The notes beneath the pieces are model-generated. The model saw nothing but the letters and a program-made list of their open reading frames with translations, did not search any database and was not told where the DNA came from. A program made the translations under genes and the position numbers. From the NCBI GenBank assembly GCA_964448115.1, contig CAYUVA010000006.1, positions 43,608-107,607 on the forward strand: a DNA stretch of 64,000 nt, read 5' to 3'. The DNA is from an uncultured bacterium. GTDB taxonomy: Bacteria > CAYUVA01. Positions 1,621-53,841 of the stretch are shown here, piece after piece; within the stretch, counting starts at the first letter, position 1, and each line of letters starts with the position of its first letter.

Positions 1621-1668
1621 CTTTGCGTGTTTGCGGAATCCTTTTTTCCTCTTTGTGCCTTTGTGCCT
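1621..1668. repeat. Copy of dispersed octamer-direct-repeat motif (CTTTGCGTGTTTGCGG ... CTTTGTGCCTTTGTGCC) in the nuoN/ompA intergenic region
   Basis: Near-identical motif blocks recur at 13790-13821 (reverse complement), 49309-49333, 53427-53442 and 53483-53500. Confidence 0.5.
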
Positions 1669-1695
1669 TAGTGGCTGATACGCTTGCAGCCGATA

Positions 1696-5991: not shown

Positions 5992-7008
5992 TTATTTCAA
6001 GTATATGATGTAAAAGCCTGTCCAAAGGATGTTCAAAAGCGCCAGGGGGAACAAGAAGTACCACCCAAAGCGCACCAACTGGTCGAAGCGAAGCCTGGGG
6101 AGTGTCCCCCGCACCCAGATAAAGAAGAATATGAAGAAAGCCATCTTGCCTAAAAGCCAGAAGATGCCTGGAATATAGGTGAATGGCGCAAAGGGTATCA
6201 GCGGCTTGTAGCCGCCTAAAAAAAGCGTGGAGGCGATCAGCGATACAACCACTAGATGCACATACTCACCTAGGAAAAACAGGGCAAACTTCATCCCGCT
6301 GTACTCGACATTGTACCCGCTGACCAGCTCAGCCTCTGCCTCGGGAAGATCGAACGGGGTGCGGTTCATCTCCGCCATAGCGGCGATGAGATAAGCCAGA
6401 AATCCGAGCGGTTGCACCAGGATAAACGGGTACCTGCCCTGTGCCTCGACGATGCTGGTCAGGTTAAGGCTGCCGGTGATCATCACGATCCCGATCACGG
6501 AGAGCCCCAATCCAAGCTCGTAGCTTATCATCTGCGAGGTCGCCCGGACTCCGCCGATAAGCGACCACTTGTTCCTAGACGCCCAGCCACCCAGCGCAGT
6601 GCCATAAACTGCAAGCGATGATAGAGCGAACAGCACCAGGAGCCCGACCTCCATATCGGCTATGGTCAACGAGACCGGCTCAAAGAAAAGTCCGAACAGC
6701 GTGGTTTCAGGGATGATCGGGATCACCGATACCATCAGCATGGCTGGGATGACAAGAAAAGCTGGCGCCAAATAATAAAGCATCTTGCGCACATCAGCGG
6801 GGATAAGGTTCTCCTTGAACTGAAGCTTGATGAAGTCAGCAAAGGGCTGGAACAGTCCCCATGGACCAATGCGGTTGGGTCCTGGTCTCAGTTGTATCCA
6901 GCCGAGTATCTTGCGCTCGAACAGCACCGCATAAGGCATGACTATCATCAGTCCGCCGAAGACGAGCAGAACCTTGATCAGGGCTATGAGCCACGGCGAG
7001 GAGATCAT
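5992..7008 (-). CDS. nuoH: NADH-quinone oxidoreductase subunit H
   Basis: A 338-aa protein with ND1 motifs (...RGPWGLFQPFADFIKL..., EAEAELVSGYNVEYSG). Confidence 0.85.
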   Translation of the reverse strand: MISSPWLIALIKVLLVFGGLMIVMPYAVLFERKILGWIQLRPGPNRIGPWGLFQPFADFIKLQFKENLIPADVRKMLYYLAPAFLVIPAMLMVSVIPIIPETTLFGLFFEPVSLTIADMEVGLLVLFALSSLAVYGTALGGWASRNKWSLIGGVRATSQMISYELGLGLSVIGIVMITGSLNLTSIVEAQGRYPFILVQPLGFLAYLIAAMAEMNRTPFDLPEAEAELVSGYNVEYSGMKFALFFLGEYVHLVVVSLIASTLFLGGYKPLIPFAPFTYIPGIFWLLGKMAFFIFFFIWVRGTLPRLRFDQLVRFGWYFLFPLALLNILWTGFYIIYLK

Positions 7009-7266
7009 GCCGAACCCCCTATTGATGATGTCTCAAACCCCCTAAAACCTGTCATCCCGAGCGCAGTCCCAACTCCGCTGGAAATTGAGACGAAGTCGAG
7101 GGATCTCAGCAAGGCAATGATTACAAAGAGATTCCTCCACTCGCTTGTCCCGAAAAATTGGAACAAGCTCAATCGGAATGACATATTTCGGATTTGCCTT
7201 GACCTTTTTGGACAGACTGCCCTTGTTTGGCGCATCCGCTCGGTTGACACTCTCTTTATATTTCCT

Positions 7267-7290
7267 CTTATCATTCTATCACTTCATATC
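7267..7290. repeat. Repeat copy CTTATCATTCTATCACTTCATATC with preceding GCTCGGTT in the 286-bp nuoA-nuoH spacer; homologous to 54143-54187
   Basis: 26 of 29 nt match between 7259-7290 and 54160-54187. The upstream GCTCGG(A)TT motif is shared. Confidence 0.5.
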
Positions 7291-7294
7291 ATGT

Positions 7295-7657
7295 CTAAAA
7301 GTGAAAAACATTCTTCTTGACAGCATAAAGATATCCCAACAACACGAAGAATAGAAAAACGCCCATCTCGATAAGCCCGAACAAGCCAAGATCCTTGAAG
7401 ATCACCGCCCAGGGGTAGAAGAATACTACCTCGATATCGAATATAAGGAAAATCAAGGCGACCACGAAGAACTTGACGCTGTAGCGCACATAAGTCTTTG
7501 TTGGCGGGATACCGCACTCGTAGGTCTCCTGCTTGATCGGGTTGGGGGAGACGCCGCCAAGTATGCGCTGGAAGAAGACCACCGCCACGACGAATAGAAG
7601 TGCGAACAGAAACAGTATGAAAAAGGCGAGATACTCCATTACTTCTGCTTCCCCCAC
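7295..7657 (-). CDS. nuoA: NADH-quinone oxidoreductase subunit A (alternative start at 7639 overlapping nuoI stop)
   Basis: ND3 motifs YECGIPP...FDIEVVFFYPWAV are present. The position is unusual: it lies after nuoI rather than at the operon head. Confidence 0.8.
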   Translation of the reverse strand: MGEAEVMEYLAFFILFLFALLFVVAVVFFQRILGGVSPNPIKQETYECGIPPTKTYVRYSVKFFVVALIFLIFDIEVVFFYPWAVIFKDLGLFGLIEMGVFLFFVLLGYLYAVKKNVFHF

Positions 7658-8109
7658 TTCTTTATTATATCGTGATGTACTCCGCCGCGGGCAAGAAGCG
7701 CCTCCTTGTTATAAATCAAGGACTGGCGGCTCGGTCCCTGGAACGCCCATTCTTTCTTGCAGAAGATAGCCTGCTCAGGGCAGACCTCCTCGCAGAACCC
7801 GCAGAAGATGCACTTGTTCATATCGATGGTGAACTCGGCAGGGTACTTTTCAACCTTGTTATCTTCGGGCAGCTCCCCAGCTTTTATTGAGATAGCCTGC
7901 GGGGGGCAGATGAACTCGCAGAGGCAGCAAGCCACGCACTTAGCTCTTCCATCCTGGTCGGTTACTAGCACTGGCGCGCCGCGATAGTTGTCCTGAACCT
8001 GCCAGACAACGAACGGGTGCGGGATAGTAGAGTGGGGGCGCAGCATGTTGCGCAGCGTGATCGAGAGACCGCGCACGAACTCGAAGGCTATGCTGAATGG
8101 ATTGCTCAT
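7639..8109 (-). CDS. nuoI: NADH-quinone oxidoreductase subunit I (2x[4Fe-4S] ferredoxin)
   Basis: Two motifs are present, CxxCxxCxxxCP (CVACCLCEFICP) and CIFCGFCEEVCP. Confidence 0.85.
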   Translation of the reverse strand: MSNPFSIAFEFVRGLSITLRNMLRPHSTIPHPFVVWQVQDNYRGAPVLVTDQDGRAKCVACCLCEFICPPQAISIKAGELPEDNKVEKYPAEFTIDMNKCIFCGFCEEVCPEQAIFCKKEWAFQGPSRQSLIYNKEALLARGGVHHDIIKKWGKQK

Positions 8110-9581
8110 GCGGTTACGCCCTTTGCTATCATGGCTAGCAGGTTTATTATCTCGCTCTCTGTTTTCACGCTCTCCGGCTTCTCTGCGCCGGGGGTGAAGT
8201 GCTGCGTGATGCCCTGGAAATTAGTCCAGTCCCCCTCTTTCTCTGTATAGACCGCTGATGGGAGTATGATGCCGAAGTAAGAGTTGGTGCTATGCGAGCT
8301 GGTGCCGACGAATATCGACTGTTGAAGCACCTTTGCCACATTTCCCGAGGCAGCCTCGCCTAGCCAGTTATCGCGGAAGGAGAGCACGAAATCAACGCCT
8401 TGCTTTTCGATCAGGTCAAGGATCTCGCCATCGGTCTCAAATAGCTTATATCCGAGCTGCTTCAAGCCGTATGCGTTGGGTCCCTTGTCAGCCCTGATCA
8501 GCAGCTCATCATCCTGCCCGGCGACGAGGCTCTTGAAGCCAAAGATCGCCTGGGGGAAGATATCCTTGAAGGTCTCCATTAGCAAGCTCGCCTCCTGGTT
8601 GCTCAGCCACTCGCTGGCAAGGATGAGCTGTTTTGCCTTGCGCTCCCTGCCGGCTTGCAAAAGCATCTCCCTGCACTGTGGCACGGCTTGCTCCCAACCG
8701 ACGCTCTCGAAGGCGCTCTTCAGCTTGCGCCAGGGGGTGAGGATGCGCTTAGGTGAATAGGCTTCCTTGTAGGACTCCCGTCCCTTGTCGCACATCCAGT
8801 AACCGTTGACCATCTCGTTGTATCTAGGAAGGATGCGCCGAACCACGAACCTTCTCGACTGCAGCCATATATTGCACCCCCGCGAGCACATGGGGCAGAT
8901 AGACTCGAAGGAGCGCAGAAACCAAACCCGATCCTTGAAGCGGAAATCCTTGGAGGTAAGCGCGCCGACCGGGCAAAGATCCACCGTGTTCAGCGAGTAG
9001 GGATCATCGAACGGCTGACCCGGCGCGGTTGCTACCGAGTTGCGATCCCCCCTTGCGATAAAGGTGAGCTGTTCGCTTTTGGATACCTCAGTGCAGAAGC
9101 GGATGCAGCGCGAGCACTTGATGCAGCGCTCGCCATCGTAAACGATGCGCGGACCTATGGGATATCGCTTGCGATCTTTCTCCTTGGGGAACTCGAAGCG
9201 GCTCCTTCCCCTGCCGCAGTCGTAGGCATAGTCCTGCAGCAGGCACTCGCCAGCCTGGTCGCAGATCGGGCAATCGAGCGGGTGATTTATCAGTTGGAAC
9301 TCCATAGCCGCTGCCCTTGCTACAAGCACCGGCTGCGTATTCGTATATACCTTCATCCCCTGGGTAGGGGAGAGCTTGCATGCGATGGTAGGATTCGGAT
9401 TATCTCCAACTTGTACCATGCACAGCCGGCAGTTGCCGGCAACCGACAGCGCTGGATGATAGCAAAGATGAGGTATGTATATATCATTAGCCAGGGCGAC
9501 CTCGAGGACATTGCTTCCCTTGTTAGCCACAATCTCGCGGTCGTTTAAGAAGAATGTAATCCTGTCGCTATCCTTGCTCAT
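8106..9581 (-). CDS. nuoG: NADH-quinone oxidoreductase subunit G, short form (491 aa)
   Basis: The N-terminal 2Fe-2S ferredoxin (CYHPALSVAGNCRLCMV) and 4Fe-4S clusters (HPLDCPICDQAGEC, CIKCSRCIRFC) are present. The C-terminal molybdopterin-like domain is reduced. Confidence 0.8.
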   Translation of the reverse strand: MSKDSDRITFFLNDREIVANKGSNVLEVALANDIYIPHLCYHPALSVAGNCRLCMVQVGDNPNPTIACKLSPTQGMKVYTNTQPVLVARAAAMEFQLINHPLDCPICDQAGECLLQDYAYDCGRGRSRFEFPKEKDRKRYPIGPRIVYDGERCIKCSRCIRFCTEVSKSEQLTFIARGDRNSVATAPGQPFDDPYSLNTVDLCPVGALTSKDFRFKDRVWFLRSFESICPMCSRGCNIWLQSRRFVVRRILPRYNEMVNGYWMCDKGRESYKEAYSPKRILTPWRKLKSAFESVGWEQAVPQCREMLLQAGRERKAKQLILASEWLSNQEASLLMETFKDIFPQAIFGFKSLVAGQDDELLIRADKGPNAYGLKQLGYKLFETDGEILDLIEKQGVDFVLSFRDNWLGEAASGNVAKVLQQSIFVGTSSHSTNSYFGIILPSAVYTEKEGDWTNFQGITQHFTPGAEKPESVKTESEIINLLAMIAKGVTA

Positions 9582-10849
9582 TCAGCCACTTGCGCCTTTG
9601 AACCCGATTTGATGTATCTCATGAATTCGTCCCTGAACTTGGTAACGAAGCTCTTGACCGGCATAGCGGCGGCTGCTCCCAGCGCGCATATAGTCCTGCC
9701 GTTTATGTTATCCGAGATCTCGCATAGCAGATCCAGGTCCGACTCCTTGCCGTTGCCCTTGAGTATGCGGTCGATGATCTTGAGCATCCATCGGCAGCCC
9801 TCGCGGCAGGGGACGCACTGACCGCAGGTCTCGTGGGTATAAAAGCGAGTGATGTTCCATAGCGCCCTGACCATATCGACCGTCTCGTCCATCACGATAA
9901 CCGCTGCGGATCCCAAGAATGTGCCCTTTGCCTGCAGGGCATCGAAGTCCATTGCCACATCGATCTCGCTCGCCTTGAGCAGCGGCACCGATGACCCGCC
10001 GGGGATGACCGCCTTGAGCTTATTGTCGTTGCGGATGCCCCCGCAGTGCTCGTAGATCAGCTCCTTGAGGTTGATGCCCATGGGGAACTCATAGACCCCC
10101 TGTTTCTTGACATGACCGCTGACGCAGTAGAGCTTGGGTCCGTAATTCTTCTCCCTGCCGTAGCTCTTGAACCAATCGACCCCCTTGTTCATTATCATAC
10201 CTGCGAGGGTAAGCGTCTCCACATTGTTGACCGTAGTGGGCAGGTTCCAGGCGCCGGCGGTGGCGGGGAAGGGTGGCTTGGGTCTCGGATAGCCGCGTCG
10301 CCCCTCAAGCGAGCTGATCAAGCCCATCTCCTCGCCGCAGATATAAGCGCCCGAGCCCCTGTCTATGACCAGGTCGCAACTGAACTTGGATCCAAGAATA
10401 TTCTTTCCGAGATAACCAGCGGCATAAGCCTCCTCGATCGCTTTATTCATTGATGCGAAGCTGTCTGGGTACTCGCCCCTGATATAAATGTACGCAGTAT
10501 CAGCACGGTTGGCGTAAGCAGCGGTCAGGATGCCCTCGATGAGTAAATGAGGGGCATTCTCCATTATGACCCGGTCCTTGAAGGTCCCCGGTTCGGATTC
10601 ATCAGCGTTGCAAATAAGGATATGCCGGCGATCATCCTTGGGCACGAAAGACCACTTGACGCCAGCGGGGAAGCCAGCGCCGCCGCAGCCACGCAGTTGG
10701 CTATCCTTGATGGTTGCGATAACATCATCGGGGCTAAGCTCATGAAGGGTCTTCTTAAGCGCCTCGTAGCCGCCCATGGCAAGATAGTCCTTCAGGCTCT
10801 TGGCTCTGGCATCCTTGGTATAGGCGGTTATCTCCTCGATCTGCTTCAT
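9578..10849 (-). CDS. nuoF: NADH-quinone oxidoreductase subunit F (NADH/FMN-binding, 51-kDa)
   Basis: The motifs GCGGAGFPAG, the SGAYICGEE FMN site, and CGQCVPCREG (4Fe-4S) are all present. Confidence 0.85.
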   Translation of the reverse strand: MKQIEEITAYTKDARAKSLKDYLAMGGYEALKKTLHELSPDDVIATIKDSQLRGCGGAGFPAGVKWSFVPKDDRRHILICNADESEPGTFKDRVIMENAPHLLIEGILTAAYANRADTAYIYIRGEYPDSFASMNKAIEEAYAAGYLGKNILGSKFSCDLVIDRGSGAYICGEEMGLISSLEGRRGYPRPKPPFPATAGAWNLPTTVNNVETLTLAGMIMNKGVDWFKSYGREKNYGPKLYCVSGHVKKQGVYEFPMGINLKELIYEHCGGIRNDNKLKAVIPGGSSVPLLKASEIDVAMDFDALQAKGTFLGSAAVIVMDETVDMVRALWNITRFYTHETCGQCVPCREGCRWMLKIIDRILKGNGKESDLDLLCEISDNINGRTICALGAAAAMPVKSFVTKFRDEFMRYIKSGSKAQVAE

Positions 10850-11332
10850 TTAATCCCTTGCTTTGAGTTCCCTTATTATTTCGATCATCTTCTCTGGCGT
10901 TACCCGGTAGTATGTCTCGAAGTTGACCATTACAACCGGACCCCTGTCGCATCCGCCGAGGCACTCGACCTGCGCTAGCGAGAAGCGCTTATCCTTGGTG
11001 GTTTGCCCCACCTTGATGCCCAGTTCCTTTTGCGCCGCCTCGATGACCTCAAGGCATCCGTTCAGCTCGCAGGAGATGGTGCCGCAGCACTGTATATGGA
11101 ACTTGCCATGATGAGGGAGCTTGTAGAACGAGTAAAAATCGAGCGCTCCATAGACCCGAGCCGGAGCGATCTTGAGGATCTCTGCAAGTTCGGGGATGAC
11201 ATCGTTGGAGACAAAACCGAGGTGATCCTGCACCAGGTAGAATGCCTCCATCAGCCCCCCGCCCGGCTCGTGGAAGCGGGCAGCCACGCTTTGTATCTTC
11301 TCCCTGAGCTGGTTGTCGATCAGATTAGCCAT
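10850..11332 (-). CDS. nuoE: NADH-quinone oxidoreductase subunit E (24-kDa, 2Fe-2S)
   Basis: Thioredoxin-like [2Fe-2S] ligands are present (CCGTISCELNG...CLGGCDRGP). Confidence 0.8.
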   Translation of the reverse strand: MANLIDNQLREKIQSVAARFHEPGGGLMEAFYLVQDHLGFVSNDVIPELAEILKIAPARVYGALDFYSFYKLPHHGKFHIQCCGTISCELNGCLEVIEAAQKELGIKVGQTTKDKRFSLAQVECLGGCDRGPVVMVNFETYYRVTPEKMIEIIRELKARD

Positions 11333-12540
11333 TATTTATCCGCCTCCCCCATTACTGGATCCAGGCTGGCAAAGATGGCGACCGCATCGGCGATCAACTG
11401 CCCCTTGAGCATCTCGCCAGCCAACTGGATATTTACGAAGCTGGGAGAGTGAATCTTCAGCCTCCACGGGGACTTGCCCCCCGCCTTGTGTATGATGGTG
11501 AAGCCGAGTTCTCCCTTGGAGGACTCCACGCCCTGATAAATCTCCCCCTCGGGGAGATCCGGTCCCTCGGTTACGATCTTGAAGTGGTTGATAAGCTCCT
11601 CCATCTTGGTGAGCACATCGACCTTGGGGGGTAGCACGACCTTGGGGAGATCTGCGTTTATAGGACCGCTGGGCATGTTCTCCACGCACTGTCTTACTAT
11701 CTTGGCGCTCTCGTCTATCTCCTGCAACCTGACCAGGTATCTTGCGTAGGTATCCCCCTTTTCCTGTAACGCCATATCGAAGTCGAACTCCTCGTACCCG
11801 CTGTAAGGTCTCGCCTTGCGCACATCGTAAGGTATCCCGCTAGCGCGGGCATTGGGACCGGTTACGCCATAAGCCAGTGCAGTCTCCTTGGACAGGATGC
11901 CGACATCGACCGTGCGCTTCAGCCAGATCTCGTTCTTGCTCAGCAGACCGCGCAGCTCCTTCATCCTCCCCGGCAGGTGATCGAGCAACGCCTTTATCTC
12001 ATCGAGGTTATCCTGTGTAACATCGTTGCGCAGCCCGCCAACCCTGGTGTAGCTGGTGGTAAACCTCGCTCCGCAGATATGCTCGAAGATGTTATATATC
12101 TTCTCCCTGGTATCGAAGCAGTAGAAATAGACGGTCATTGCGCCTATATCGAGCGCGGTAGTAGCTAGCCACAGCAAGTGCGAGGAGATCCTGGCAAGCT
12201 CGCTGACCATTACTCGTATATACTTGCAGCGCGGTGGAACCTCGATACCGCCCAGCTTCTCCACAGCCAGCATGTAGCCGACATTATTGAGCATCGGGTT
12301 CAGGTAATCGAGGCGGTCCGTATGGCAGAGAAACTGCATAAAGGTCAGTCGCTCCGCGGTCTTCTCCTTGCCCCGATGCAGATAGCCAATGATCGGCTTG
12401 ACATCGGTTATATACTCGCCATCAAGGGTGATAAGCAGGCGGCAGACTCCATGGGTGGCAGGATGCTGGGGACCCATGTTCAGAACGATCTGGTTCTTGT
12501 CCTTGTCTGCTATTAACTGTTCAAGCTCTTGTCTCATCAA
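11332..12540 (-). CDS. nuoD: NADH-quinone oxidoreductase subunit D (49-kDa)
   Basis: A 402-aa protein with the NiFe-hydrogenase-large-subunit-like fold motifs (MGPQHPATHGV..., ...RIHSPSFVNI). Confidence 0.85.
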   Translation of the reverse strand: MMRQELEQLIADKDKNQIVLNMGPQHPATHGVCRLLITLDGEYITDVKPIIGYLHRGKEKTAERLTFMQFLCHTDRLDYLNPMLNNVGYMLAVEKLGGIEVPPRCKYIRVMVSELARISSHLLWLATTALDIGAMTVYFYCFDTREKIYNIFEHICGARFTTSYTRVGGLRNDVTQDNLDEIKALLDHLPGRMKELRGLLSKNEIWLKRTVDVGILSKETALAYGVTGPNARASGIPYDVRKARPYSGYEEFDFDMALQEKGDTYARYLVRLQEIDESAKIVRQCVENMPSGPINADLPKVVLPPKVDVLTKMEELINHFKIVTEGPDLPEGEIYQGVESSKGELGFTIIHKAGGKSPWRLKIHSPSFVNIQLAGEMLKGQLIADAVAIFASLDPVMGEADK

Positions 12541-13172
12541 TCACCCTTTGGCTTGTATTTTCTGACCTTAGCCATGGTCCCTTTTCTTATCTTTTGCTTC
12601 TTGCACTCGCCTGTCGTGATCCTAGCCTCGCACTCCTCGAAGGGGTAGAACTCGCACTCCTCGCGCTTGAGGTGGTGCACCTGCTCTGGACCGGCGTGTC
12701 CGGTGAAGGGAAAGTCTTTGCGCAGAGGATGCCCCTCGAAGTCCTCCCACATATATATTCGGCGCAGGTCCGGATGCCCCTCAAAGTGAATGCCCATCAT
12801 GTCGTAGGCTTCGCGCTCCAGCCAGTTGGCGCCCGCATATACCGACACCAGGCTAGGAACCATTGGCTTAGATTTTTCGATATCATCGGTGTCTGGTATG
12901 AGTGCCTTGACCAGGATGCGGTAGTTGTTTTTGATTGAAAGGAAAATGTAAATCAAGGCAAACCTCGGCTGCTTCCACCCGCTGTAGTCAACCGAGACGA
13001 TATCGAGCAGCATCTCGAAGTCGAATGGCGCGACATTGAGCCTCTCGGCAACCTTTACAATGTCGGCTGCATCGATGATGAGCATTATGTCGCCTCGATG
13101 CTCCGAGATCTCCTTTATAAGCTCTGGATTATCAGCCTGGAATCTTGATAGGATGCTCTTCAGGTCTGCCAT
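12537..13172 (-). CDS. nuoC: NADH-quinone oxidoreductase subunit C (30-kDa) with Cys/Lys-rich C-terminal tail
   Basis: The motif [21 protein letters not shown] is present. The tail is [24 protein letters not shown].... Confidence 0.8.
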
Positions 13173-13680
13173 TTTTTATCCACTCGCGAAGTTTCAGCAG
13201 TGCGTCGATTACACTCTCCGGCCTAGGGGGACATCCGCCGACATAAACATCGACAGGGAGGAAGTGATCGATACCAGGTACCACAGAGTAATTGCTGCGG
13301 TACAAGCCACCGGAACAGACGCAGGCTCCCATGGCGATCACCCACTTGGGAGTAGCCATCTGGTCGTAGATCCTGCGCACCACCGGCGCCATCTTGTAGG
13401 TTACCGTGCCTGCCACGATCATGCAGTCAGCCTGCCGGGGCGAAAAGCGCATGACCTCCATTCCGAAGCGGGAAATATCGTACCTCGGCGCCACCAGACC
13501 CATCATCTCTATGGCGCAACAGGAGATCCCCATCGGCATGGGCCAGAGGCTCCCTCGCTGCCCCCACTTGATTAGATACTTATCAATGGTCTCGATGGTG
13601 GTTAGATAGATGTTGCGAAGTAACCCGGACCTCTTTTCCGCTTCCGCTTCAGTTACTGCTAGTTCTGGTTCTGCATTCAT
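13132..13680 (-). CDS. nuoB: NADH-quinone oxidoreductase subunit B (20-kDa, N2 cluster)
   Basis: The motifs CCAIEMM...GACVCSGG...GCPPRP are present. It is the first gene of the operon and overlaps nuoC by 41 nt. Confidence 0.85.
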
Positions 13681-13789: not shown

Positions 13790-13821
13790 CACGCAAAGAC
13801 GCTCACGCAAAGAACGCAAAG
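13790..13821. repeat. Reverse-complement copy of the CTTTGCGT octamer-repeat motif (plus strand reads CACGCAAAGACGCTCACGCAAAGAACGCAAAG)
   Basis: Three tandem CACGCAAAG units lie upstream of the nuo operon. Confidence 0.5.
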
Positions 13822-32666: not shown

Positions 32667-35039
32667 ATGATAAACAAGATCCTGATCAAGATAGTAAATA
32701 GCGTGATCAACAAGCTACTTCGCAAGTATAAGATCCCGGACGAGGTGCTTTTATACCTAAGGAGCGCCTCGGCGATCAGTAGCAAGGGGAAGGTCAAGTA
32801 TCCGACCGAACTTTTGCCATTGGGGGCTAGGCTCTATAGTCAAGGATTCCTTAATTTCATGGTGCTGCAGACCAACCTGGACTGGGTATTGCCCTACTGG
32901 GCTTGTAAGCAGTACGACTACAAGACTCCCAGCTTCATCCCAAGAGCGCTCTATCCGATCTCTTTGAACGCCTCCCATCGCGATTGGACTATGTTCGGCA
33001 ATCTCGATTCCAAGCTGGAGGGTATAGTTGATCCCCGGGGGCTAACTACCCCCTGGATCAACTCCTACTCGGTAGATGTATGGCTCAAAGGGGCAGATGG
33101 GTGGATATTCCCTTCCCGGCTCACTGAATTCGAGCAGTCGGTTCCTGAGCATGCGCCAGTTGTAACCAACCGATTTAGCAGCGATGCAGCCGATGTCGCC
33201 ACCCGCATATATGCCGTTAAGGCACGAGAGAAAGACCTTTGCCGCATGGAGGTAACCGTAACAAATGTCTCCGAGGAAAAGATCGAGACCTCGCTGGCAA
33301 TAGCGGTGAGACCATTCAATCCCGAAGGGGTTACTACATTATTCGATCTTGAGTTCAAGTATCCTGGGTATTTCATACTCGACGGCAATATCGGACCGGT
33401 TTTTAGGGAATTCCCTAGCAGGATTGCTTGTTCTAGCTATGAAAGGGGCGATGTGGCCCTTGCTCTTGATGGGGCCAGCGATCGGTCATCGGCATCTTGC
33501 CCAGCCGGTTTGGCTAGCGGGGCAGCAATCTATGATATCGCCCTTAAGAAGGGAGAAACATACTCGGTGAACCTTGCCTTTCCGATGAGGGCAATCAAGG
33601 CGAACCTGGATGAAGTCCAGCATATCAAGGCATCGATGGATACCATCGTGATCGATGATGTTATATCTAGCTGGGAAGAAAGGCTCTTCGAGGGGATGCT
33701 GGTCAGATTGCCTGATAAGGAACTGGAGCGCCTTTTCAATGTAAACAAGTATTACTTACTTCTTCTCGATGATGCTGGTTCGATCACTCCCGGTCCAGCC
33801 ACCTACCATCACTTCTGGTTTCGCGATGCTGCCTACATGGTTTATGCGCTGGACCTGGTCGGATATCACAGCCTGGCAAGACGCATCCTGTTTAGCTATC
33901 CCTATCGCCAGGATGTAAATGGATTCTTCATCTCTCAAAATGGCGAATGGGACTCGAATGGGCAGGCGATCTGGGCACTGATGAACCATTACTACCTAAC
34001 CCGGGACAAGAGATTTCTGCGAGAGGTTTATCCTTCGATTAGCCGTGGCGTTGGCTGGATAAGGGAAGCGAGACTGCTCAAGGGGCATGAGAACACCCCA
34101 CATCATGGTCTCTTGCCGGCGGGGTTTAGTGCTGAACACCTAGGGAATGTTGATTATTATTTCTGGGATAACTTCTGGTGCCTTGCCGGCGTAAGGGAGG
34201 CGTTATTTGCGGCTAAGATCCTGAACAAGGTGGAGGATACAATCATGTTTCACGACCTCTTCGAGGATTATCGCAGAAGCATCGAGAGGGCGATGGATCA
34301 TGCCCAGGAGAAGCTGGGAGACAAGCTCATCCCGGCAGGTCCCTATCGGCGCATGGACTGCGGCGCCATCGGCTCGATATGCGCTGTATATCCATTGGAC
34401 CTGTTAGCCTATCATAATACAGCGGTGAGGAATACGCTAAATTATATACTAACCAACTTTTGTCATAATAAGTGCTTCTTCCAGGATATGGTGCACTCCG
34501 GCATCAATGCATACCTGACATTGCACCTGGCGCAGTCTTACTTGATGGGACGCGATAAAACTTGCCTGGAGATCTTTGAGGAGATACGCAAGCTGGCAAC
34601 TCCTACCCTTACTTATCCGGAGGCGATCCATCCGAGCAGCGGTGGAGGCTGTATGGGAGATGGGCACCATGGATGGGCAGCCGCCGAGATCTTGACCATG
34701 ATTCGAAACCTGATCTTCATGACCCATAACAACATACTGGAGCTGTTCCCGGTACCAATAGAATCATGGTTCAAAGAAGGCTCGACAATCTCGGTAAAGG
34801 ATGGGGGCAGCATATTTGGAGCGATCAGCTTTACCCTCAAGGTAGGCAAGGACCTGTTGGAGATCGACCTGGAACCGAGGTTTTTGGTCTCGCCGGATAA
34901 GATAGCCATCAATATCCCCTTGCCGTTGGCTGTTGCCGAGGCTGATGGGAGCGAGGTTGCCATACAACAAAGAGGGGATATCAGCTACCTCGAATGCGAT
35001 GTAACAACTCGACGATTGATTGCAAAGTTCAAGACATAA
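32667..35039 (+). CDS. Six-hairpin (alpha/alpha)6 glycoside hydrolase, glucoamylase/GDE_C-like
   Basis: A 790-aa protein with the central ...HHFWFRDAAYMVYALDLVGYH...NGEWDSNGQAIWAL... toroid-type motifs. The exact family is unresolved. Confidence 0.45.
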   Translation: MINKILIKIVNSVINKLLRKYKIPDEVLLYLRSASAISSKGKVKYPTELLPLGARLYSQGFLNFMVLQTNLDWVLPYWACKQYDYKTPSFIPRALYPISLNASHRDWTMFGNLDSKLEGIVDPRGLTTPWINSYSVDVWLKGADGWIFPSRLTEFEQSVPEHAPVVTNRFSSDAADVATRIYAVKAREKDLCRMEVTVTNVSEEKIETSLAIAVRPFNPEGVTTLFDLEFKYPGYFILDGNIGPVFREFPSRIACSSYERGDVALALDGASDRSSASCPAGLASGAAIYDIALKKGETYSVNLAFPMRAIKANLDEVQHIKASMDTIVIDDVISSWEERLFEGMLVRLPDKELERLFNVNKYYLLLLDDAGSITPGPATYHHFWFRDAAYMVYALDLVGYHSLARRILFSYPYRQDVNGFFISQNGEWDSNGQAIWALMNHYYLTRDKRFLREVYPSISRGVGWIREARLLKGHENTPHHGLLPAGFSAEHLGNVDYYFWDNFWCLAGVREALFAAKILNKVEDTIMFHDLFEDYRRSIERAMDHAQEKLGDKLIPAGPYRRMDCGAIGSICAVYPLDLLAYHNTAVRNTLNYILTNFCHNKCFFQDMVHSGINAYLTLHLAQSYLMGRDKTCLEIFEEIRKLATPTLTYPEAIHPSSGGGCMGDGHHGWAAAEILTMIRNLIFMTHNNILELFPVPIESWFKEGSTISVKDGGSIFGAISFTLKVGKDLLEIDLEPRFLVSPDKIAINIPLPLAVAEADGSEVAIQQRGDISYLECDVTTRRLIAKFKT

Positions 35040-39365: not shown

Positions 39366-40205
39366 ATGCGAGAGATCCATGTAGATGAGATAGCGAAGCT
39401 GGTTGCGCCACTGACCTACCAGGCGAACTACTACCTTGGTGAAGATGTACTCAATTCCCTTAAAGAGGGGCTGGAAAAGGAAATAAGCCCTGCTGGCAAG
39501 GATATCTTCAGGCAGCTTATCAAGAATGCAGAGATCGCCCGTGATGAGCAGATGCCGATCTGCCAGGACTGCGGTCTGGCGGTCTATTTTGTCGAGCTGG
39601 GCGTGGATGTGCATATAGTCGGCGGCACCCTGCGCGATGCATTGGAGCAGGCTACACGAGTCGGCTACAAGGAGGGCTACCTGCGCAAATCTACCTGCGA
39701 CCCATTCACCAGAAAAAACATAGGGGACAACACCCCCAGTATTATTCATCTCGAGCAGGTTCCCGGCGACAAGATAAAGATCATCTTTGCTCCCAAGGGT
39801 GGTGGCAGCGAGAATATGAGCCGGGTTACAATGTTGGCACCTTCACAGGGAATTGAGGGAGTAAAGAAATTCGTAGTCAATCGCGTGTCAGAAGCTGGCG
39901 CTAATCCATGTCCTCCGATAGTAGTCGGCATCGGTGTCGGGGGTACATTCGAGCGCTCGGCTTATCTTGCAAAAAAGGCGCTTATCCGTGAGTTCGGACA
40001 GAGAAATCCCGAAGAGCGTTTCGCAAACTTCGAGCGCGAGGTCTGGGAGGAGTGTAACAAGCTCGGCATCGGTCCACAGGGGCTGGGTGGCAGGTTCACC
40101 GTCCTGGAAGTATTCATGGAGGTGGAGCCTTGTCATATCGCAAGCCTACCCTGTGCGGTAAATATAAACTGCCATGCGACAAGACATAAGGAGATATTGA
40201 TATAG
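39366..40205 (+). CDS. Fumarate hydratase class I / Fe-S hydro-lyase, alpha subunit (TtdA/FumA N-terminal type)
   Basis: A 279-aa protein with the motifs ...DEQMPICQDCGLAVYFVELG... and ...KGGGSENMSR.... No beta subunit gene is adjacent. Confidence 0.75.
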   Translation: MREIHVDEIAKLVAPLTYQANYYLGEDVLNSLKEGLEKEISPAGKDIFRQLIKNAEIARDEQMPICQDCGLAVYFVELGVDVHIVGGTLRDALEQATRVGYKEGYLRKSTCDPFTRKNIGDNTPSIIHLEQVPGDKIKIIFAPKGGGSENMSRVTMLAPSQGIEGVKKFVVNRVSEAGANPCPPIVVGIGVGGTFERSAYLAKKALIREFGQRNPEERFANFEREVWEECNKLGIGPQGLGGRFTVLEVFMEVEPCHIASLPCAVNINCHATRHKEILI

Positions 40206-40268
40206 GCTTTAGGCTTTAGGCTTTAGGCTTTAGGCTTTAGGCTTTAGGCTTTAGGCTTTAGGCTTTAG
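40204..40268. repeat. Tandem heptamer array (AGGCTTT)x9, beginning at the fumA-alpha stop codon
   Basis: Nine perfect 7-nt units were read directly. Confidence 0.95.
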
Positions 40269-40630
40269 TTTTTGGAAGAGCGAAGTGAGGCAATTAGACC
40301 TTGGAGAACCCTGCAAGCTTCTTGTTGAAGAACCGATAATTTTCTATGCTGGTCGCGTTTCAGGTAGCCAAGATCTTTTGACAAATCAAGTAGATAGGCA
40401 ATCTCGAAAAGAGAACCAAGTGAAATTCCTAGGAAGTGTACATAATCGCGTTGTGAAAACCTGGCACTACCTTCGACTATATTTGTTGGAACTGAAACAG
40501 CAGCGCGCCTTAGCTGAGATGTCAAACCATACAACTCTTCCTTTGGAAAGTATTGTGTTTCCTTGTAGATCTCTTTCACCAAACAATCGGCAAGTTCGAA
40601 TGCTTTTAGCCTATGATAATCCCTGGGCAT
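40265..40630 (-). CDS. Four-helix-bundle protein (23S rRNA intervening-sequence protein family)
   Basis: A 121-aa protein. The motif ...RRAAVSVPTNIVEGSARFSQRD... matches the family signature. Confidence 0.75.
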   Translation of the reverse strand: MPRDYHRLKAFELADCLVKEIYKETQYFPKEELYGLTSQLRRAAVSVPTNIVEGSARFSQRDYVHFLGISLGSLFEIAYLLDLSKDLGYLKRDQHRKLSVLQQEACRVLQGLIASLRSSKN

Positions 40631-40689
40631 ACTTGAAAACTAACATAAATAAAGAAAAAAACAACAAAAAACTATTTTCCCAAAAGCAA

Positions 40690-40731
40690 AAAGCCAAGAG
40701 CCTAAAGCCTAAAGCCTAAAGCCTAAAGCCT
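40690..40731. repeat. Inverted copy of the heptamer array: (AAAGCCT)x4 perfect plus 2 degenerate units
   Basis: It is the reverse complement of the 40204-40268 array, so together they bracket the four-helix-bundle gene. Confidence 0.9.
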
Positions 40732-40739
40732 TAAAAACC

Positions 40740-42392
40740 ATGCGATTGCCTTTTAAACGATATGGGCGACCATTCTTGGTACTGCTGGGCATTGCCCTAA
40801 CGCTCGGAATAGTGCTTAGAGTTATGGGGCTTGGCTGGGGGATCGGACCCGATCTGTTTCACCCCGATGAGTGGAAGATCGTCAACGATGTGATCCTGAT
40901 TAACGATGGTAATTTCAAGCTCGGAGACTACAATTATCCGAGCGGATTTCACTATATTTGCTCGCTGGTAACTTTCATAGCTGCCAAGGTTGGCATAATC
41001 TGGGAATCCCTGTACAGTCCTCATATTCAATTACTCTGTCGCTGGATGACCATTTTGTTCGCCATGGCGAGCATAGTATTTATAGCTCTTTGCGGAGCGA
41101 GGCTTTATTCATGGCGAGTTGGTGCTTTCTCAGCCCTCTTTTTAGCCATTGCCACTATCCATGTAGTGCACTCGCATTACTGCACGGTTGATGTTGCAGC
41201 CACCGCCTGGATTCTATTCGTGCTTTATATCTCCACTTTTATCCTGGAAAAACCGAGTATGAAGCATTATATCTGGGCGGGTATCGGGGCTGGATTGGCA
41301 GCAGCCACCAAGTACAATGCTGGTCTGGCAGTAGTTATGCCTATAACAGCACATTTATTGAACTCGATCGCCGGCGATAGCCTCAATTATAAGCTGAAAA
41401 GCTTATTCAGGGCATTATTTTCATTCCGCCTGGTGGTCTTGGGATTCGTTGCCCTGATTGCCTTTATCGCGCTGGTTCCCTATGCGGTGCTTGACTTTCA
41501 GTGGGTCATAGTTGATGGCATGATCAAGCAGATACGCCAAGCCAAGGAGGGACCGGACTTCATGCCATACATGGATAAACCGCCCGGCTGGTATTATTAT
41601 CTAATTGAATTACTCCCCATAAGCATGGGGGCGCCGCTTTTAGCCCTATGCCTACTTGGCGGAATGATAACCCTCACCCGCTGGCGAAGGGCTGATATCA
41701 TCCTTTTGTCGTTCTTGGTGCCTTATTATCTGGGGCTTGGGTCAGCAAGCCTGATGTTCATTCGCCACGCGTTGTTTTTAGTCCCCATCCTGGTGTTATG
41801 GGGAGGTATAAGCTCGGATTGGTTGATAGGCATCCATGAAAAGTCGAAGAATAAGCTGGTCGCTTATGTTCCGATTACCCTTCTCGCCATGGTGCTCATC
41901 TATTCATTGGCACATTCGCTAGCTCACTCGCTGCTGTTTGTGCGCAAGGACACCAGGGATCAGGCAATGGAATACCTGGTTCAGTGCTACGATCCCCTGA
42001 CACCGATCGGTGTTATGATAAGTCCAGTAGGTCTTGATCGCTCAGATAAGCCTGCCTTGCATGAATTCTTTGATAATATATGTTTAGGATATTACCTACA
42101 GGAGATCTTCGAGTATAAGCCAGAAGTAATGGTATTTAGCAATTATGACTACCGACAGATCTTGCGTATGCACCATAAGCTAAAGCGTAGCGAGTGGCCG
42201 CACCAGCGCGATATGGTCTGGGAAGCTGACCTTTGGAGGATATTTCTCGCTGAAAGGTTCGATGGATGGTGGGAGGAAGCCAGGTTAGAGCGCAGGGCAA
42301 CCTTGCTTGGCATGGATTTCTCCGCTGATTGGATACCGCACGACTGGATGTACCTTAACCCAACAGTTCATATATTTAGACGAGATAACTGA
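40740..42392 (+). CDS. GT-C membrane glycosyltransferase, PMT/ArnT-like (family 39/83-like)
   Basis: A polytopic protein. The first-loop motif FHPDEWKIVNDV is present. Confidence 0.6.
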   Translation: MRLPFKRYGRPFLVLLGIALTLGIVLRVMGLGWGIGPDLFHPDEWKIVNDVILINDGNFKLGDYNYPSGFHYICSLVTFIAAKVGIIWESLYSPHIQLLCRWMTILFAMASIVFIALCGARLYSWRVGAFSALFLAIATIHVVHSHYCTVDVAATAWILFVLYISTFILEKPSMKHYIWAGIGAGLAAATKYNAGLAVVMPITAHLLNSIAGDSLNYKLKSLFRALFSFRLVVLGFVALIAFIALVPYAVLDFQWVIVDGMIKQIRQAKEGPDFMPYMDKPPGWYYYLIELLPISMGAPLLALCLLGGMITLTRWRRADIILLSFLVPYYLGLGSASLMFIRHALFLVPILVLWGGISSDWLIGIHEKSKNKLVAYVPITLLAMVLIYSLAHSLAHSLLFVRKDTRDQAMEYLVQCYDPLTPIGVMISPVGLDRSDKPALHEFFDNICLGYYLQEIFEYKPEVMVFSNYDYRQILRMHHKLKRSEWPHQRDMVWEADLWRIFLAERFDGWWEEARLERRATLLGMDFSADWIPHDWMYLNPTVHIFRRDN

Positions 42393-42487: not shown

Positions 42488-43549
42488 ATGGAAGTGCTTA
42501 TCAAGACAGCGGCTCGGCAGCCAATCTTGCTTCTACTGCTAGTGGCTCTTTATTTTCTACCGGTTATTGCTTGTGCACAGGAGAATCTTATCCCAAGACA
42601 TCCTCCCGAATCGCCATTTGGCATAAATATCCATCTACTGGACTGCGGCTCGTCGGAATGGGGTTTAGTGGAATATCTCGGCGTGGACTGGGTTAGGGTC
42701 GATTTCAACTGGGCTGATATAGAAGTTCAGGATAACCAGTATATCTGGAACCTGACCGAATCGAACTATTATGATTGCACTGCCCAGACAGCTAATAAAC
42801 TTGGCTTGAATGTATTTGCAACCATATCCAAGACCCCATCGTGGCTCGGCGAGAGTAACTCGGTTCCTGAAGTTCATGCCTGGATGGAATTTGTTCGCCA
42901 TGTAGTCGAACGCTATGATGGAGATGGATACGCCGATGCGCCGGGATCTCCTGTTATACGATACTGGGGGATGTGGAACGAGCCAGACAATACGGCATTT
43001 TTCACCGGCACTCTGGAGCAATATCGCGAGATCATCCTAAAGCCCGGATATCGTGCAGCCAAGAGCGCAGACCCGACCTGCAAGGTTGTGGGGCTGGCGG
43101 CAGCGGAGTACCTCTATCTGGGCTGGAATTGGGAGCCTATCTTCGATGATGGCGGAATAAATGCGCTCGATATAATTAGCACCCACGAGTACTACTACGA
43201 TGGCGATCCACTATACGAGGTGCTCAATGTGCTCGGAATTCTCGATGATCTCAACCCTTACGGCATACAGAAGGAGATCTGGATTACCGAGACCGGCTCA
43301 TATACTTATGGCGGTTCCCGCAAGGTAAGCGAGGCAGAGCAGGCCAAGAAGCTGAGAGAGATGTGCCATCATCTGATGTGTTTCTACAATGTGAGTAAGG
43401 TCTTCTTCTATGAGCTGAAGGACCTCCCCAACAGCGCTGGTTGGGGGCTTTTCAACATGAACAATACTCCCAAGCAGGCTGCCATTGCCTACCGGGAGAT
43501 CATCGAGCGATACAAGTGCAAACAGGGCGGAGATGTAACGCTGCCATGA
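42488..43549 (+). CDS. Secreted clan GH-A (GH5/GH39-like) glycoside hydrolase
   Basis: A signal peptide is present. The acid/base motif WNEPD and nucleophile motif WITETG are present. Confidence 0.5.
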   Translation: MEVLIKTAARQPILLLLLVALYFLPVIACAQENLIPRHPPESPFGINIHLLDCGSSEWGLVEYLGVDWVRVDFNWADIEVQDNQYIWNLTESNYYDCTAQTANKLGLNVFATISKTPSWLGESNSVPEVHAWMEFVRHVVERYDGDGYADAPGSPVIRYWGMWNEPDNTAFFTGTLEQYREIILKPGYRAAKSADPTCKVVGLAAAEYLYLGWNWEPIFDDGGINALDIISTHEYYYDGDPLYEVLNVLGILDDLNPYGIQKEIWITETGSYTYGGSRKVSEAEQAKKLREMCHHLMCFYNVSKVFFYELKDLPNSAGWGLFNMNNTPKQAAIAYREIIERYKCKQGGDVTLP

Positions 43550-44829
43550 TATCACAATATCGATCATTTCTGATATTGACGCTCATCTTCTACTCGATCA
43601 TACAAGCTGGCTGTCGGGAGGACTCGGTGATATTGCCATTGGAGGGGAGGGATTGGATGCGTATTGAGGCGGCGCAGATGGATGCCTCTGGGAGCCTGGA
43701 GGTAATAGCAGCCAACTACCAGGACAACGCCATCTTCGTTCTATCCGATGATGTCTCCCTGGGATGGCAGATAACTTACAAGATTGAACCTAATTTCCAG
43801 CTCGCCGATTTCATTGTGCTTGACTTCGGTGGGGGAAGGCTGAATCCATACTCGGCAAAGGATGATATTGCATATCTGCTCAAGGAATATACCCGCTATA
43901 ACACCGTGTTTATCAACCATTATTTGCAGGGAAACAAGTATGCCTTTCATGGCTGGGACATCAATCATCTAACCACCGGCGATATCGATGGAGACGGCAA
44001 CCATGAAGTCCTGTTCACTAACACATCGACTATGGGCTTCGATACCGAGCAGATCGTCTGCCTTGACCTGGTTAGCGGCATCATGGAGGAGATCATTGTG
44101 TGCGATGTGGTCATGGATTGGTGCCAGTTGATCTGCGGGGATGTGAGCGGGGACGGCGCTGATGAGGTGATCGCTGCCTCGAGGAAGTATGGTGTTATAG
44201 TGATATTCAGGTTCTGCCCTACTGACAGGAGTTTTCATATATATAAGAAGGCTTACCTGACCACCCCGATGTACGCTGGGCATATAGCGGATATGCAGAT
44301 GGCCGATAACCGTCTCTTTGTTGCCTCGGAGACACACCCCAGGGGAACTGTATTCGAGTTCATCCCTGAAGTGCTCCCCTGGCAGTATGGCTTCATTCAA
44401 AGACCGGTCGAGACCAACCCGTTTTATACCGCTCCAACGATTAGTACCGCTGATCTCGATGGAAATGGCGATATCGAGGTGGTATTCGCCAGCAAAGATC
44501 GCGGGGAGCTGTTCGCCTACGATATCGTAAATAACAACTGGCAACGAAATATCATTGCTGATATCGGAGTTCCAATAAAAGATATGGTTGCTGGCAGATT
44601 CTTAAGTCCATTCAGGCAGCAGGTGGCAGTGATCTATGATCAGGATCAACCAATATACCTGTATTCATTGCAAGATGGGCAAAAGGGATATGGTATCAAG
44701 CAGTTGACCGATCAAGGCAACAGGTTCCATGAGGCTGGCGCGGTCGATATCTATCAAGATGGTATCGATGAGCTTTTAATCGGCTGCCAGCAGGGTATCA
44801 TGCTCATCAGTCCGATCGCTGCCCAGTAA
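43546..44829 (+). CDS. FG-GAP/VCBS-repeat beta-propeller lipoprotein
   Basis: The ATG overlaps the upstream stop (ATGA). A lipobox ...IIQAGC is present. Repeats GDIDGDGNHEV, GDVSGDGADEV and ADLDGNGDIEV are present. Confidence 0.55.
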   Translation: MISQYRSFLILTLIFYSIIQAGCREDSVILPLEGRDWMRIEAAQMDASGSLEVIAANYQDNAIFVLSDDVSLGWQITYKIEPNFQLADFIVLDFGGGRLNPYSAKDDIAYLLKEYTRYNTVFINHYLQGNKYAFHGWDINHLTTGDIDGDGNHEVLFTNTSTMGFDTEQIVCLDLVSGIMEEIIVCDVVMDWCQLICGDVSGDGADEVIAASRKYGVIVIFRFCPTDRSFHIYKKAYLTTPMYAGHIADMQMADNRLFVASETHPRGTVFEFIPEVLPWQYGFIQRPVETNPFYTAPTISTADLDGNGDIEVVFASKDRGELFAYDIVNNNWQRNIIADIGVPIKDMVAGRFLSPFRQQVAVIYDQDQPIYLYSLQDGQKGYGIKQLTDQGNRFHEAGAVDIYQDGIDELLIGCQQGIMLISPIAAQ

Positions 44830-44957
44830 TCGACGCGGGTAGCGTAAACAAGTGGTCATTTATCCGAGCCGTGAGTTTAAGCGAGCGTTTATTCATTGCA
44901 ATTGATCACTCCCTAACAGTCGTGGCTCGGATTAGGGGCGCTGCCCAGTAATCTACG
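44818..44957. repeat. MITE-like element: 18-bp direct repeats GCTGCCCAGTAATC(G/T)ACG flanking about 104 bp with imperfect terminal inverted repeats ATCCGAGCCGTGAG / CAGTCGTGGCTCGGAT
   Basis: Read directly. The GGCTCGGAT core recurs at 53404 and 54143. Confidence 0.45.
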
Positions 44958-49308: not shown

Positions 49309-49333
49309 TCTTTGTGTCCTTGTGCCTTTGTGG
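49309..49333. repeat. Copy of octamer-repeat motif TCTTTGTGTCCTTGTGCCTTTGTGG
   Basis: Same motif family as 1621-1668. Confidence 0.5.
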
Positions 49334-53320: not shown

Positions 53321-53348
53321 TGTCCTTGATCGTAAGGCTTGAGGATCT

Positions 53349-53365
53349 CCCGACAAAGTCGGGAC
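53349..53365 (+). terminator. Hairpin TCCCGAC-AAA-GTCGGGA after the FadL-like gene
   Basis: A 7-bp stem. The downstream tract is only moderately T-rich. Confidence 0.35.
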
Positions 53366-53403
53366 CACTTCTTCTGGGCAAGGAAGGATTACCACTCCCT
53401 TAC

Positions 53404-53500
53404 GGTCGTGGCTCTGATTTTGCTATCTTTGTGCCTTTGTGATTTAATAATCATCGAATTTCGCACTCTTTCTTCTTTTCGCCTTTGCGTGTTTGCGTGA
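53404..53500. repeat. Composite repeat: GTCGTGGCTCTGATTTT + CTTTGTGCCTTTGTGA (53427-53442) + CTTTGCGTGTTTGCGTGA (53483-53500)
   Basis: It matches motifs at 1621-1668 (15 of 15 nt CTTTGCGTGTTTGCG) and the GGCTCGGAT family. Confidence 0.5.
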
Positions 53501-53823: not shown

Positions 53824-53841
53824 ATGTTCCACATGGAACAT
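53824..53841. promoter_or_regulatory. Perfect palindrome ATGTTCCA-CA-TGGAACAT in the long AT-rich intergenic region
   Basis: Read directly. Confidence 0.25.

Follow-up and report, generated by a model that had tools for sequence, protein, structure and literature searches.

Intergenic octamer arrays in an uncultured bacterium and a widespread repeat family physically linked to GxxExxY genes

Here, we describe a family of short intergenic repeats that came to light in a 64,000-nt stretch of DNA from an uncultured bacterium (contig CAYUVA010000006.1, positions 43,608 to 107,607; hereafter the window). The repeats are arrays of an octamer unit, CTTnGyGn, and we propose, with moderate confidence, that the blocks in the window are gene-less half-elements of a non-autonomous family resembling REPINs (hairpin-forming doublets of repetitive extragenic palindromes, REPs) or miniature inverted-repeat transposable elements (MITEs), and that the complete form of this family is a cassette built around a GxxExxY gene. 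The family is present in hundreds of unrelated contigs, has a defined architecture, ranges over bacterial and phage DNA, and is physically linked to GxxExxY genes. It has apparently not been described so far, as the array strings were found in no paper of the searchable library, which likewise held no description of a link to GxxExxY genes.

The window holds six arrays at four sites, A to D, together with one isolated near-match. Units are of two types, GCG and GTG, according to their positions 5 to 7.

Array A1, 1621 to 1636, plus strand: two GCG-type units, CTTTGCGT GTTTGCGG; upstream of an OmpA-family gene whose start (1390, minus strand) is about 230 nt away.
Array A2, 1651 to 1673, plus strand: three GTG-type units, CTTTGTGC CTTTGTGC CTTAGTG (Tandem Repeats Finder: period 8, 2.9 copies); 22 nt past the stop codon of nuoN (1696, minus strand) and antisense to it.
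Array B, 13790 to 13821, minus strand: three GCG-type units, CTTTGCGT(G), at spacings of 9 and 14, with tails TGAG and TGAT; 109 nt upstream of nuoB (13680) and 252 nt downstream of a phasin gene, sense to both.
Array C, 49310 to 49332, plus strand: three GTG-type units, CTTTGTGT CCTTGTGC CTTTGTG, then GTTAAC; 31 nt past the stop codon of a B12-binding radical-SAM gene and 66 nt upstream of a TPR/TMEM260-like gene, both on the minus strand.
Array D1, 53427 to 53441, plus strand: two GTG-type units, CTTTGTGC CTTTGTG; 106 nt downstream of a FadL/TodX-family gene (plus strand).
Array D2, 53483 to 53503, plus strand: two GCG-type units (53483 to 53497), CTTTGCGT GTTTGCG, with the tail TGAGAT and a pyrimidine tract before them.
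One-mismatch copy, 45004 to 45018, minus strand: CTTTGTGCCTTTGTA, within an unannotated 481-aa open reading frame (ORF), where it may be due to chance or to a coding coincidence.

An earlier note on this DNA, made from the sequence alone, had drawn attention to repeated CTTTGCG and CTTTGTG blocks lying between genes. Every block that it listed is present as described and all the main copies are indeed intergenic, although the minus-strand block at 13790-13821, which it took for a tandem of three, has the three CTTTGCGT(G) units at spacings of 9 and 14 and so is no strict 8-nt tandem. The identity that it noted between 1621 and 53483 extends over 15 of 15 nt between unrelated flanks, and a second pair of identical 15-mers, CTTTGTGCCTTTGTG, lies at 1651 and 53427, again with unrelated flanks. 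When 100 dinucleotide-preserving shuffles of the window are taken as background, the degenerate two-unit pattern TTTGYGNNTTTGYG has four exact matches, all intergenic, against 0.00 expected, and nine matches with one mismatch against 0.90 expected (largest shuffle, 4). Enrichment is a property of the clusters, single units not being overrepresented in general. Array density in the window is about 20 times that in 1.27 Mb of control bacterial loci, which had been fetched for their NuoF.

The six arrays have much in common. A T/C-rich tract precedes each of them, no array mixes GCG-type with GTG-type units (A1 and A2 are separated by a gap of 14 nt), and A2, C and D1 sit 22-106 nt past stop codons. 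Orientation to the flanking genes is not fixed, the arrays at A and C being antisense and those at B and D sense. The units match the commonest ones of the wider family (CTTTGCGT, CTTTGTGC and CTTTGTGT), array B having its spacings of 9 and 14. Tails fit the family in D2 (TGAGAT, its joint most frequent tail), B (TGAG and TGAT) and C (GTTAAC, among its common tails) and are atypical in A1, A2 and D1, while the terminal CTTAGTGG unit of A2 is typical of GTG-type arrays in other genomes. A2, C and D2 are textbook members of the family.

This module is also found far beyond the window. A two-array pattern (CTTTGYGNNTTTGYG, 12-42 nt, CTTTGYGNNTTTGYG), which carries about 45 bits and for which we estimate well under one chance match, was found in at least 120 metagenome contigs. 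Their GC content runs from 21 to 67%, they include marine and microbial-mat assemblies (going by the few descriptive contig names), and some are cyanobacterial, going by their content of the HIP1 motif. The units in these loci are CTTTGCGC, CTTTGCGT, CTTTGTGC and CTTTGTGT, with positions 4 and 8 free and a pyrimidine (Y) at position 6; they share the pyrimidine-rich leader of the window arrays and are followed by TGAGAT, TGAAAC or TGAAAA. GTG-type arrays outside the window end in GTTCAT, GTTAAT or GTTAAC, often after a CTTAGTGG or CTTGGTGG unit. In viral contigs, a triple-unit pattern occurs at 114 loci, compared with 14 for the reversed unit and 14 for a permuted unit of the same composition, and the flanking ORFs are genuine phage genes (capsid, portal and Mu-like head proteins). 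The control loci gave strict two-unit matches in two loci only, both from acidobacterial metagenome-assembled genomes; one of the two, L076, carries an inverted pair of arrays and the other, L070, by inspection, a degenerate inverted partner, and several of the period-8 tandem repeats reported by Tandem Repeats Finder in the controls belong to the octamer family. A BLAST search of a model element against plasmids and phages returned no match, a result that is uninformative, the low-complexity filter being its probable cause. Across the metagenome loci, arrays favour gaps between convergent genes (33 of 76; background, 79 of 283) and avoid those between divergent ones (3 of 76; background, 46 of 283).

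Many of the arrays outside the window have an inverted partner within 150 nt, and it is these pairs that define the complete element: 5'-TCA(CRCnAAGn)n - loop - (CTTnGyGn)nTGA-3'. The A-rich array mostly comes first (86 A-first against 20 T-first pairs in the viral set, 137 against 28 in the metagenome set), and successive units are spaced by 8, 9 or 7 nt in 699, 85 and 9 cases in one tally and 475, 56 and 4 in the other. Strong folding is seen in complete elements (L348, z = -5.7; L076, z = -13.1), and the loop of the stem is either a 125-aa GxxExxY gene or a short spacer with no gene. Proliferation within one genome is indicated by the locus L134, where 8.6 kb include six or more palindromic copies, nearly identical and without a gene. 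Solo arrays are common too, making up 57% of the arrays in the viral set, so that the arrangement in the window, where arrays are solo or have a direct partner only, with no inverted partner within about 150 nt, is typical of the family.

The link to GxxExxY genes emerges from both directions. A Pfam scan of 150 ORFs flanking arrays found a single recurrent family, PF13366 (PDDEXK_3, GxxExxY), with seven members, the rest being single housekeeping genes, and a hidden Markov model (HMM) search found eight GxxExxY genes in 0.61 Mb of array loci and none in the 1.27 Mb of controls. The array-linked genes, which encode 125-aa proteins of the PD-(D/E)XK type, lie between inverted arrays. In the reverse test, a profile made from the seven array-associated proteins retrieved at least 8000 homologues, all 8000 of those scored having E <= 1e-10 and many lying on contigs shorter than 1.5 kb, from which five were picked for their long or multiple contigs and their contexts then fetched. 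Arrays or complete hairpins lay about 5-60 nt from the start or stop codon in five of the five independent contexts (L345, L346, L347, the L348 group and the L356 group), a result that is valid for this subfamily only, since the profile was built from array-associated proteins. The L346 cassette illustrates the layout: ...TCTCA CGCCAAGA CGCGAAGG CGCAAAGG gatt ATG ... TAA taaaatgt CTTCGCGC CTTGGCGT CTTTGCG TGAC, with the two arrays making the closing stem in the predicted fold. In both L345 (9165-11383) and L346 (8999-10378), two syntenic genomes whose GxxExxY proteins are each about 70% identical to the reference GxxExxY protein, the cassette stands directly 3' of a PF00579 (Trp/Tyr tRNA synthetase family) gene. 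No solved structure was found for the GxxExxY protein by sequence search. One survey gives its function as unknown and reports multiple horizontal transfers (PMC3424549); the few papers naming GxxExxY or PF13366 likewise give the function as unknown, and searches of the library for GxxExxY, PF13366 and PF05635 turned up nothing about flanking repeats, while one for cyanobacterial short tandemly repeated repetitive sequences gave mostly noise.

Several of these loci have further features. L346 also carries a gene-less inverted array pair at 6556-6634. In the soil metagenome contigs L348-L354, a GxxExxY gene and four complete array hairpins lie inside a type I restriction-modification operon, the cassette sitting between the specificity (Methylase_S) and restriction (HSDR_N/ResIII) genes. 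At other loci GxxExxY genes adjoin toxin-antitoxin genes (MazE and AbiEii and, by our own reading, a nucleotidyltransferase/HEPN pair in L134).

In light of this linkage, how might the arrays behave? The module consists of a pyrimidine-rich leader, two to three CTTnGyGn units and then, often, a TGAGA or GTTAA tail. In complete elements, two facing arrays pair into a long interrupted stem around a GxxExxY gene or a short loop, and the octamer units are presumably recognised in trans by the GxxExxY protein, which, we infer, mobilises or maintains the arrays. Gene-less copies could then spread and persist in the manner of REPINs or MITEs, single arrays could grow, shrink or duplicate through slippage or unequal exchange, and arrays would be tolerated chiefly just past gene ends. 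The window copies, having lost or never had an inverted partner, cannot form the stem and are probably inert relics rather than controllers of nuo. A bolder extension, which we put forward only tentatively and regard as possible rather than probable, sees in the arrays the cis-acting ends of selfish cassettes that form an unrecognised class, occur across many lineages and have a GxxExxY nuclease as their sole protein. Such a system would be similar to REPIN-RAYT with a different enzyme, its gene would lie in the loop of a stem of octamer units, its gene-less copies would have populated the intergenic DNA of bacteria and phages, and the unit may additionally exploit the universal consensus for RNA polymerase pausing (see below).

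These findings bear on protein function as well as on annotation. GxxExxY (PF13366/TIGR04256) is a very large family of uncharacterised small proteins, and the conserved octamer arrays that enclose its genes are a concrete candidate for its DNA or RNA substrate, thus offering a handle on its function. Many GxxExxY homologues lie on contigs of 600-1400 bp, and one of the two Logan contigs that cover parts of the window (L082, with nuo genes; the other, L001, is 100% identical) stops 196 nt past nuoN, at window position 1500 or thereabouts, just beyond array A. Together, these contig ends suggest that the repeats routinely break short-read assemblies, and the link to GxxExxY would account for a class of intergenic repeats that do so. 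Annotators should also be warned not to read such arrays as operon-specific operators.

The earlier note had suggested a REP- or MITE-like non-autonomous family, and this suggestion holds in substance. The family is multi-copy, gene-less in most of its copies, intergenic and spread over hundreds of unrelated contigs, but it differs from classical REPs and MITEs: terminal inverted repeats and target-site duplications are both lacking in the window copies, and the imperfect palindrome of 20-40 nt that marks a REP is absent from all four window sites. No RAYT (Y1 HUH transposase) gene was found among the 30 window ORFs scanned against Pfam, about half of those in the window; in other genomes the linked gene is PF13366.

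Structured RNA was considered separately. Folding of the four window sites on both strands gave z values from -0.95 to +0.77, with no significant structure; Rfam 15 gave no match in the window at the gathering score (only chance-level matches in 53250-54300) and none in 20 array-bearing loci from elsewhere. With z around 0 and Rfam empty, both a structured RNA and a REP hairpin were rejected for these four sites. Also rejected was a nuo transcript whose 5' and 3' ends pair by way of arrays B and A, the duplex energy of -49.6 kcal/mol ranking 56th among 576 genomic windows and being equalled by 7% of shuffles.

Some observations weigh against half-elements of a mobile GxxExxY cassette. No transposition signature, in the form of a target-site duplication, was seen among the arrays examined. 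A six-frame HMM search found no GxxExxY gene or remnant in the window, and no such gene is present in any of the 114 viral loci, so most arrays exist with no gene nearby. The occupation of the same site in L345 and L346 argues for long residence rather than frequent movement, the convergent/divergent bias of the metagenome loci is not present in the viral loci, and the five contexts of the reverse test, as said, speak for one subfamily.

What else might the arrays be? The main alternative, which we judge rather unlikely, is that they serve as terminators or insulators by making RNA polymerase pause at each module of the tandem, the T-rich strand being the non-template one. The pause consensus is G-10Y-1G+1, or G-11G-10T-3G-2Y-1G+1 in its extended form (PMC6062546, PMC9291695), and it is reported to act on polymerases from bacteria to mammals (PMC6336406); the polymerase core being universal, pausing would explain the presence of the unit across phyla and in phages. 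Each unit would provide T-3, G-2, Y-1 and G+1 while the previous unit placed its G at -10, a weak CUUU hybrid would aid repeated stalling, and, where two arrays are inverted, a hairpin forming in the nascent RNA would lengthen the pause or set the transcript free. The constant positions G5, Y6 and G7 and the mostly T4 fit the consensus, the only two-fold degenerate position being the Y. The order of spacings (8 far above 9, and 9 above 7) fits as well, because a spacing of 9 puts a G at the consensus position -11 and one of 7 would not fit, and the excess of A-first hairpins and the location of A2 and C 22-31 nt past stop codons are also as pausing would have them. However, no strand bias is seen among 178 arrays between co-oriented genes (sense against antisense, 46 and 37 in the metagenome set, 48 and 47 in the viral set), arrays lacking an inverted partner show 60 sense against 44 antisense, which is not significant, and A2 and C are antisense to the very genes that they follow. 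In addition, the hairpins have no U-tract after them, the strongly conserved C1-T2-T3 and the TGAGA tail go unexplained by pausing, and a random octamer unit would, by our estimate, hold TGYG on one strand or the other with a chance of about 1 in 8. If the arrays do act by pausing, they would be a natural and portable transcription-stalling module.

A second option, and a very improbable one, is that the arrays are operators at which a regulator, by recognising direct repeats of 8 bp, would control nuo and the other genes alongside. MetJ, which binds tandem 8-bp met boxes, is a precedent, identical 8-bp tandem direct repeats do occur at separate loci with unrelated flanks, and array B lies in sense orientation 109 nt upstream of nuoB. 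The earlier note had raised such a regulator, with sites upstream of nuo and downstream of nuoN framing the operon and a co-occurring DNA-binding protein to be sought. This finds no support in the distribution of the arrays. Most window copies are at the 3' ends of genes, two of them antisense, with orientation not fixed; their neighbours (radical-SAM and TPR genes, FadL and DnaJ genes) are functionally unrelated and form no coherent regulon at promoters; and the promoter-rich divergent gaps of the metagenome loci are depleted of arrays. Predicted pairing between the copies on either side of nuo is unexceptional (rank 56 of 576 genomic windows). The same arrays stand at unrelated loci, beside unrelated genes in phages (including regions of structural genes) and in contigs of 21-68% GC. 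No family of DNA-binding proteins recurs beside them, PF13366 being the only recurrent neighbour.

Finally, the arrays could be microsatellite-like expansions that arose independently in pyrimidine-rich intergenic sequence and share neither origin nor function. This would account for the unmixed GCG and GTG units (as local duplication would produce), for the company of other short-period arrays in the window such as (TAGGCTT)9 and for the 14 viral tandem arrays of each control unit, but is the least probable reading and is largely refuted by the enrichment across collections (114 viral loci, 14 per control) and the specific linkage to GxxExxY genes, along with the conserved leader and tail and the identical 15-mers at two locus pairs against 0.00 expected.

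The window holds other repeats beside the arrays, two of which are copies of a YTATCAC-type repeat.

YTATCAC-type repeat, copy 1, 7258 to 7297, plus strand: CTTATCAT TCTATCAC TTCAT, in the 286-nt gap between nuoA and nuoH.
YTATCAC-type repeat, copy 2, 54155 to 54194, plus strand: about 80 nt upstream of a DnaJ-domain gene.

The earlier note had treated a CTTATCAC/TCTATCAC form at 7267 and 54164 as a relative of the octamer blocks. It is a genuine two-copy repeat, 83% identical over 40 nt, but its unit is a different one, and the resemblance is confined to layout, with a T-rich leader and units spaced by 8 nt. Only a mechanical 89-aa ORF, which has no Pfam match and was not called by the Logan gene caller either, overlaps 7267-7290. 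TTATCAC/CTATCAC heptamer arrays form an inverted pair in the acidobacterial locus L056. A motif, GGCTCGGATT, had also been reported next to several arrays; two arrays do adjoin it, but the association is weak, and the 12-mer itself occurs at chance level (two matches against 1.0 expected). As a part of the octamer element it was rejected, for it belongs to a separate genome-specific repeat, CACTCCCTWACRGTCGTGGCTCKGATT.

This source of GGCTCGGATT is a small repeat family in its own right, (GATTAC)CACTCCCTWAC-RGTCGTGGCTCKGATTT. It has three plus-strand copies (44907-44933, 53393-53419 and 54075-54160), the third with a 53-nt internal insertion, and none of the other fetched loci carries it. At 44817-44957, a segment of about 103 nt lies between 19-nt direct repeats, CGCTGCCCAGTAATC(G/T)ACG (two matches against 0.00 expected), that take in the stop codon of an FG-GAP gene (43441-44829); it holds a 13-bp inverted repeat, ATCCGAGCCGTGA...GTCGTGGCTCGGAT, with fold z of -1.6 and -2.3, and looks like an insertion or duplication at the 3' end of that gene. 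The 944-nt intergenic region between the FadL-family gene and the DnaJ-domain gene (53321-54264) contains several hairpins and both D arrays, with no ORF longer than 53 aa and no Rfam match. It also includes, upstream of the DnaJ-domain gene, an inverted repeat similar to CIRCE, TTACCACTC-N19-GAGTGGTCA, whose spacer is too long for a canonical CIRCE.

The nuo cluster itself (5992-13680) has an unusual order, with nuoB first (13132-13680) and nuoA in mid-cluster (7295-7657), and the 286-nt non-coding gap before nuoH carries one copy of the CTTATCAT/TCTATCAC repeat. The host belongs to an isolated lineage, as its best NuoF match among one genome each for 185,579 species is 58% identical, and NuoN, searched in 5.8 billion clusters, finds itself and then a next best match of 38% identity, the named matches being from Zixibacteria and Latescibacteria. 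ARAGORN calls a 91-nt tRNA-Pro (anticodon AGG) at 34109-34199, which falls within a 790-aa ORF (32667-35039) and is probably a false positive.

A parallel case in the same window concerns another gene family. On the minus strand at 40265-40630 is a 121-aa gene of the PF05635 (23S rRNA-intervening-sequence)/TIGR02436 four-helix-bundle family, similar to bAvd. It lies between (TAGGCTT)9 and an inverted (AAGCCTA) array (40203-40734; arms of 55 nt, 89% complementary), the whole cassette being inserted between genes for fumarase alpha (39366-40205) and a PMT_2 glycosyltransferase (40740-42392). Two PF05635 genes of the control loci are likewise flanked by inverted arrays, of 6-mers in L039 (apparently between nuoM and nuoN, by our reading of the flanks) and of 7-mers in L035. 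From these three cases, small genes within inverted arrays of short units appear to be a general design. The flanks of GxxExxY genes keep one conserved unit, CTTnGyG, whereas those of PF05635 genes vary from case to case. A link of the CTTnGyG arrays to the four-helix protein of 23S rRNA intervening sequences was rejected, no PF05635 gene being nearby in the 120 metagenome and 114 viral loci.

How does the family compare with known systems? The period-8 unit matches the RNA polymerase elemental pause (G-10Y-1G+1) at G-10, T-3, G-2, Y-1 and G+1, pausing itself being a prediction. The met boxes of MetJ are also tandem 8-bp direct repeats in two to five copies, but they are palindromic (AGACGTCT) and belong to the promoters of one regulon in one lineage, whereas the octamer arrays are asymmetric, mostly at the 3' ends of genes and spread across lineages. 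The short tandemly repeated repetitive sequences of cyanobacteria are likewise intergenic short tandem units with no assigned function; they have a period of 7, as opposed to 8, while the octamer arrays have a defined leader and tail, extend beyond cyanobacteria and are linked to a gene family. The 23S rRNA intervening sequences (S23p, PF05635) resemble the complete cassette in that their inverted flanks pair into a long stem whose loop holds a small ORF, but GxxExxY cassettes stand between protein-coding genes and not in rRNA, and processing by RNase III would be an extrapolation.

MITEs and foldback elements come closer, being non-autonomous, multi-copy and intergenic, with complete copies whose inverted ends consist of short tandem repeats and may or may not enclose a gene, as in the many gene-less copies of L134. 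In contrast, the octamer family shows no target-site duplication and no recognised transposase, its ends have only two to four units, and the window has half-elements only. The closest working analogue is the REP/REPIN-RAYT system of Enterobacteria and Pseudomonas, with which the family shares short extragenic repeats, mainly beyond the 3' ends of genes, that occur singly or as hairpin-forming inverted doublets, a small associated gene that is itself flanked by inverted repeats, and a majority of copies that are gene-less. Here, however, the repeat is a tandem octamer array rather than a single imperfect palindrome, there is no GTAG head and the window copies are non-palindromic. The linked protein is a PD-(D/E)XK GxxExxY protein rather than a Y1 HUH transposase, its gene being multi-copy and found in many lineages, and where REPs are lineage-specific, the octamer unit is common to contigs of widely different GC content and to phages.

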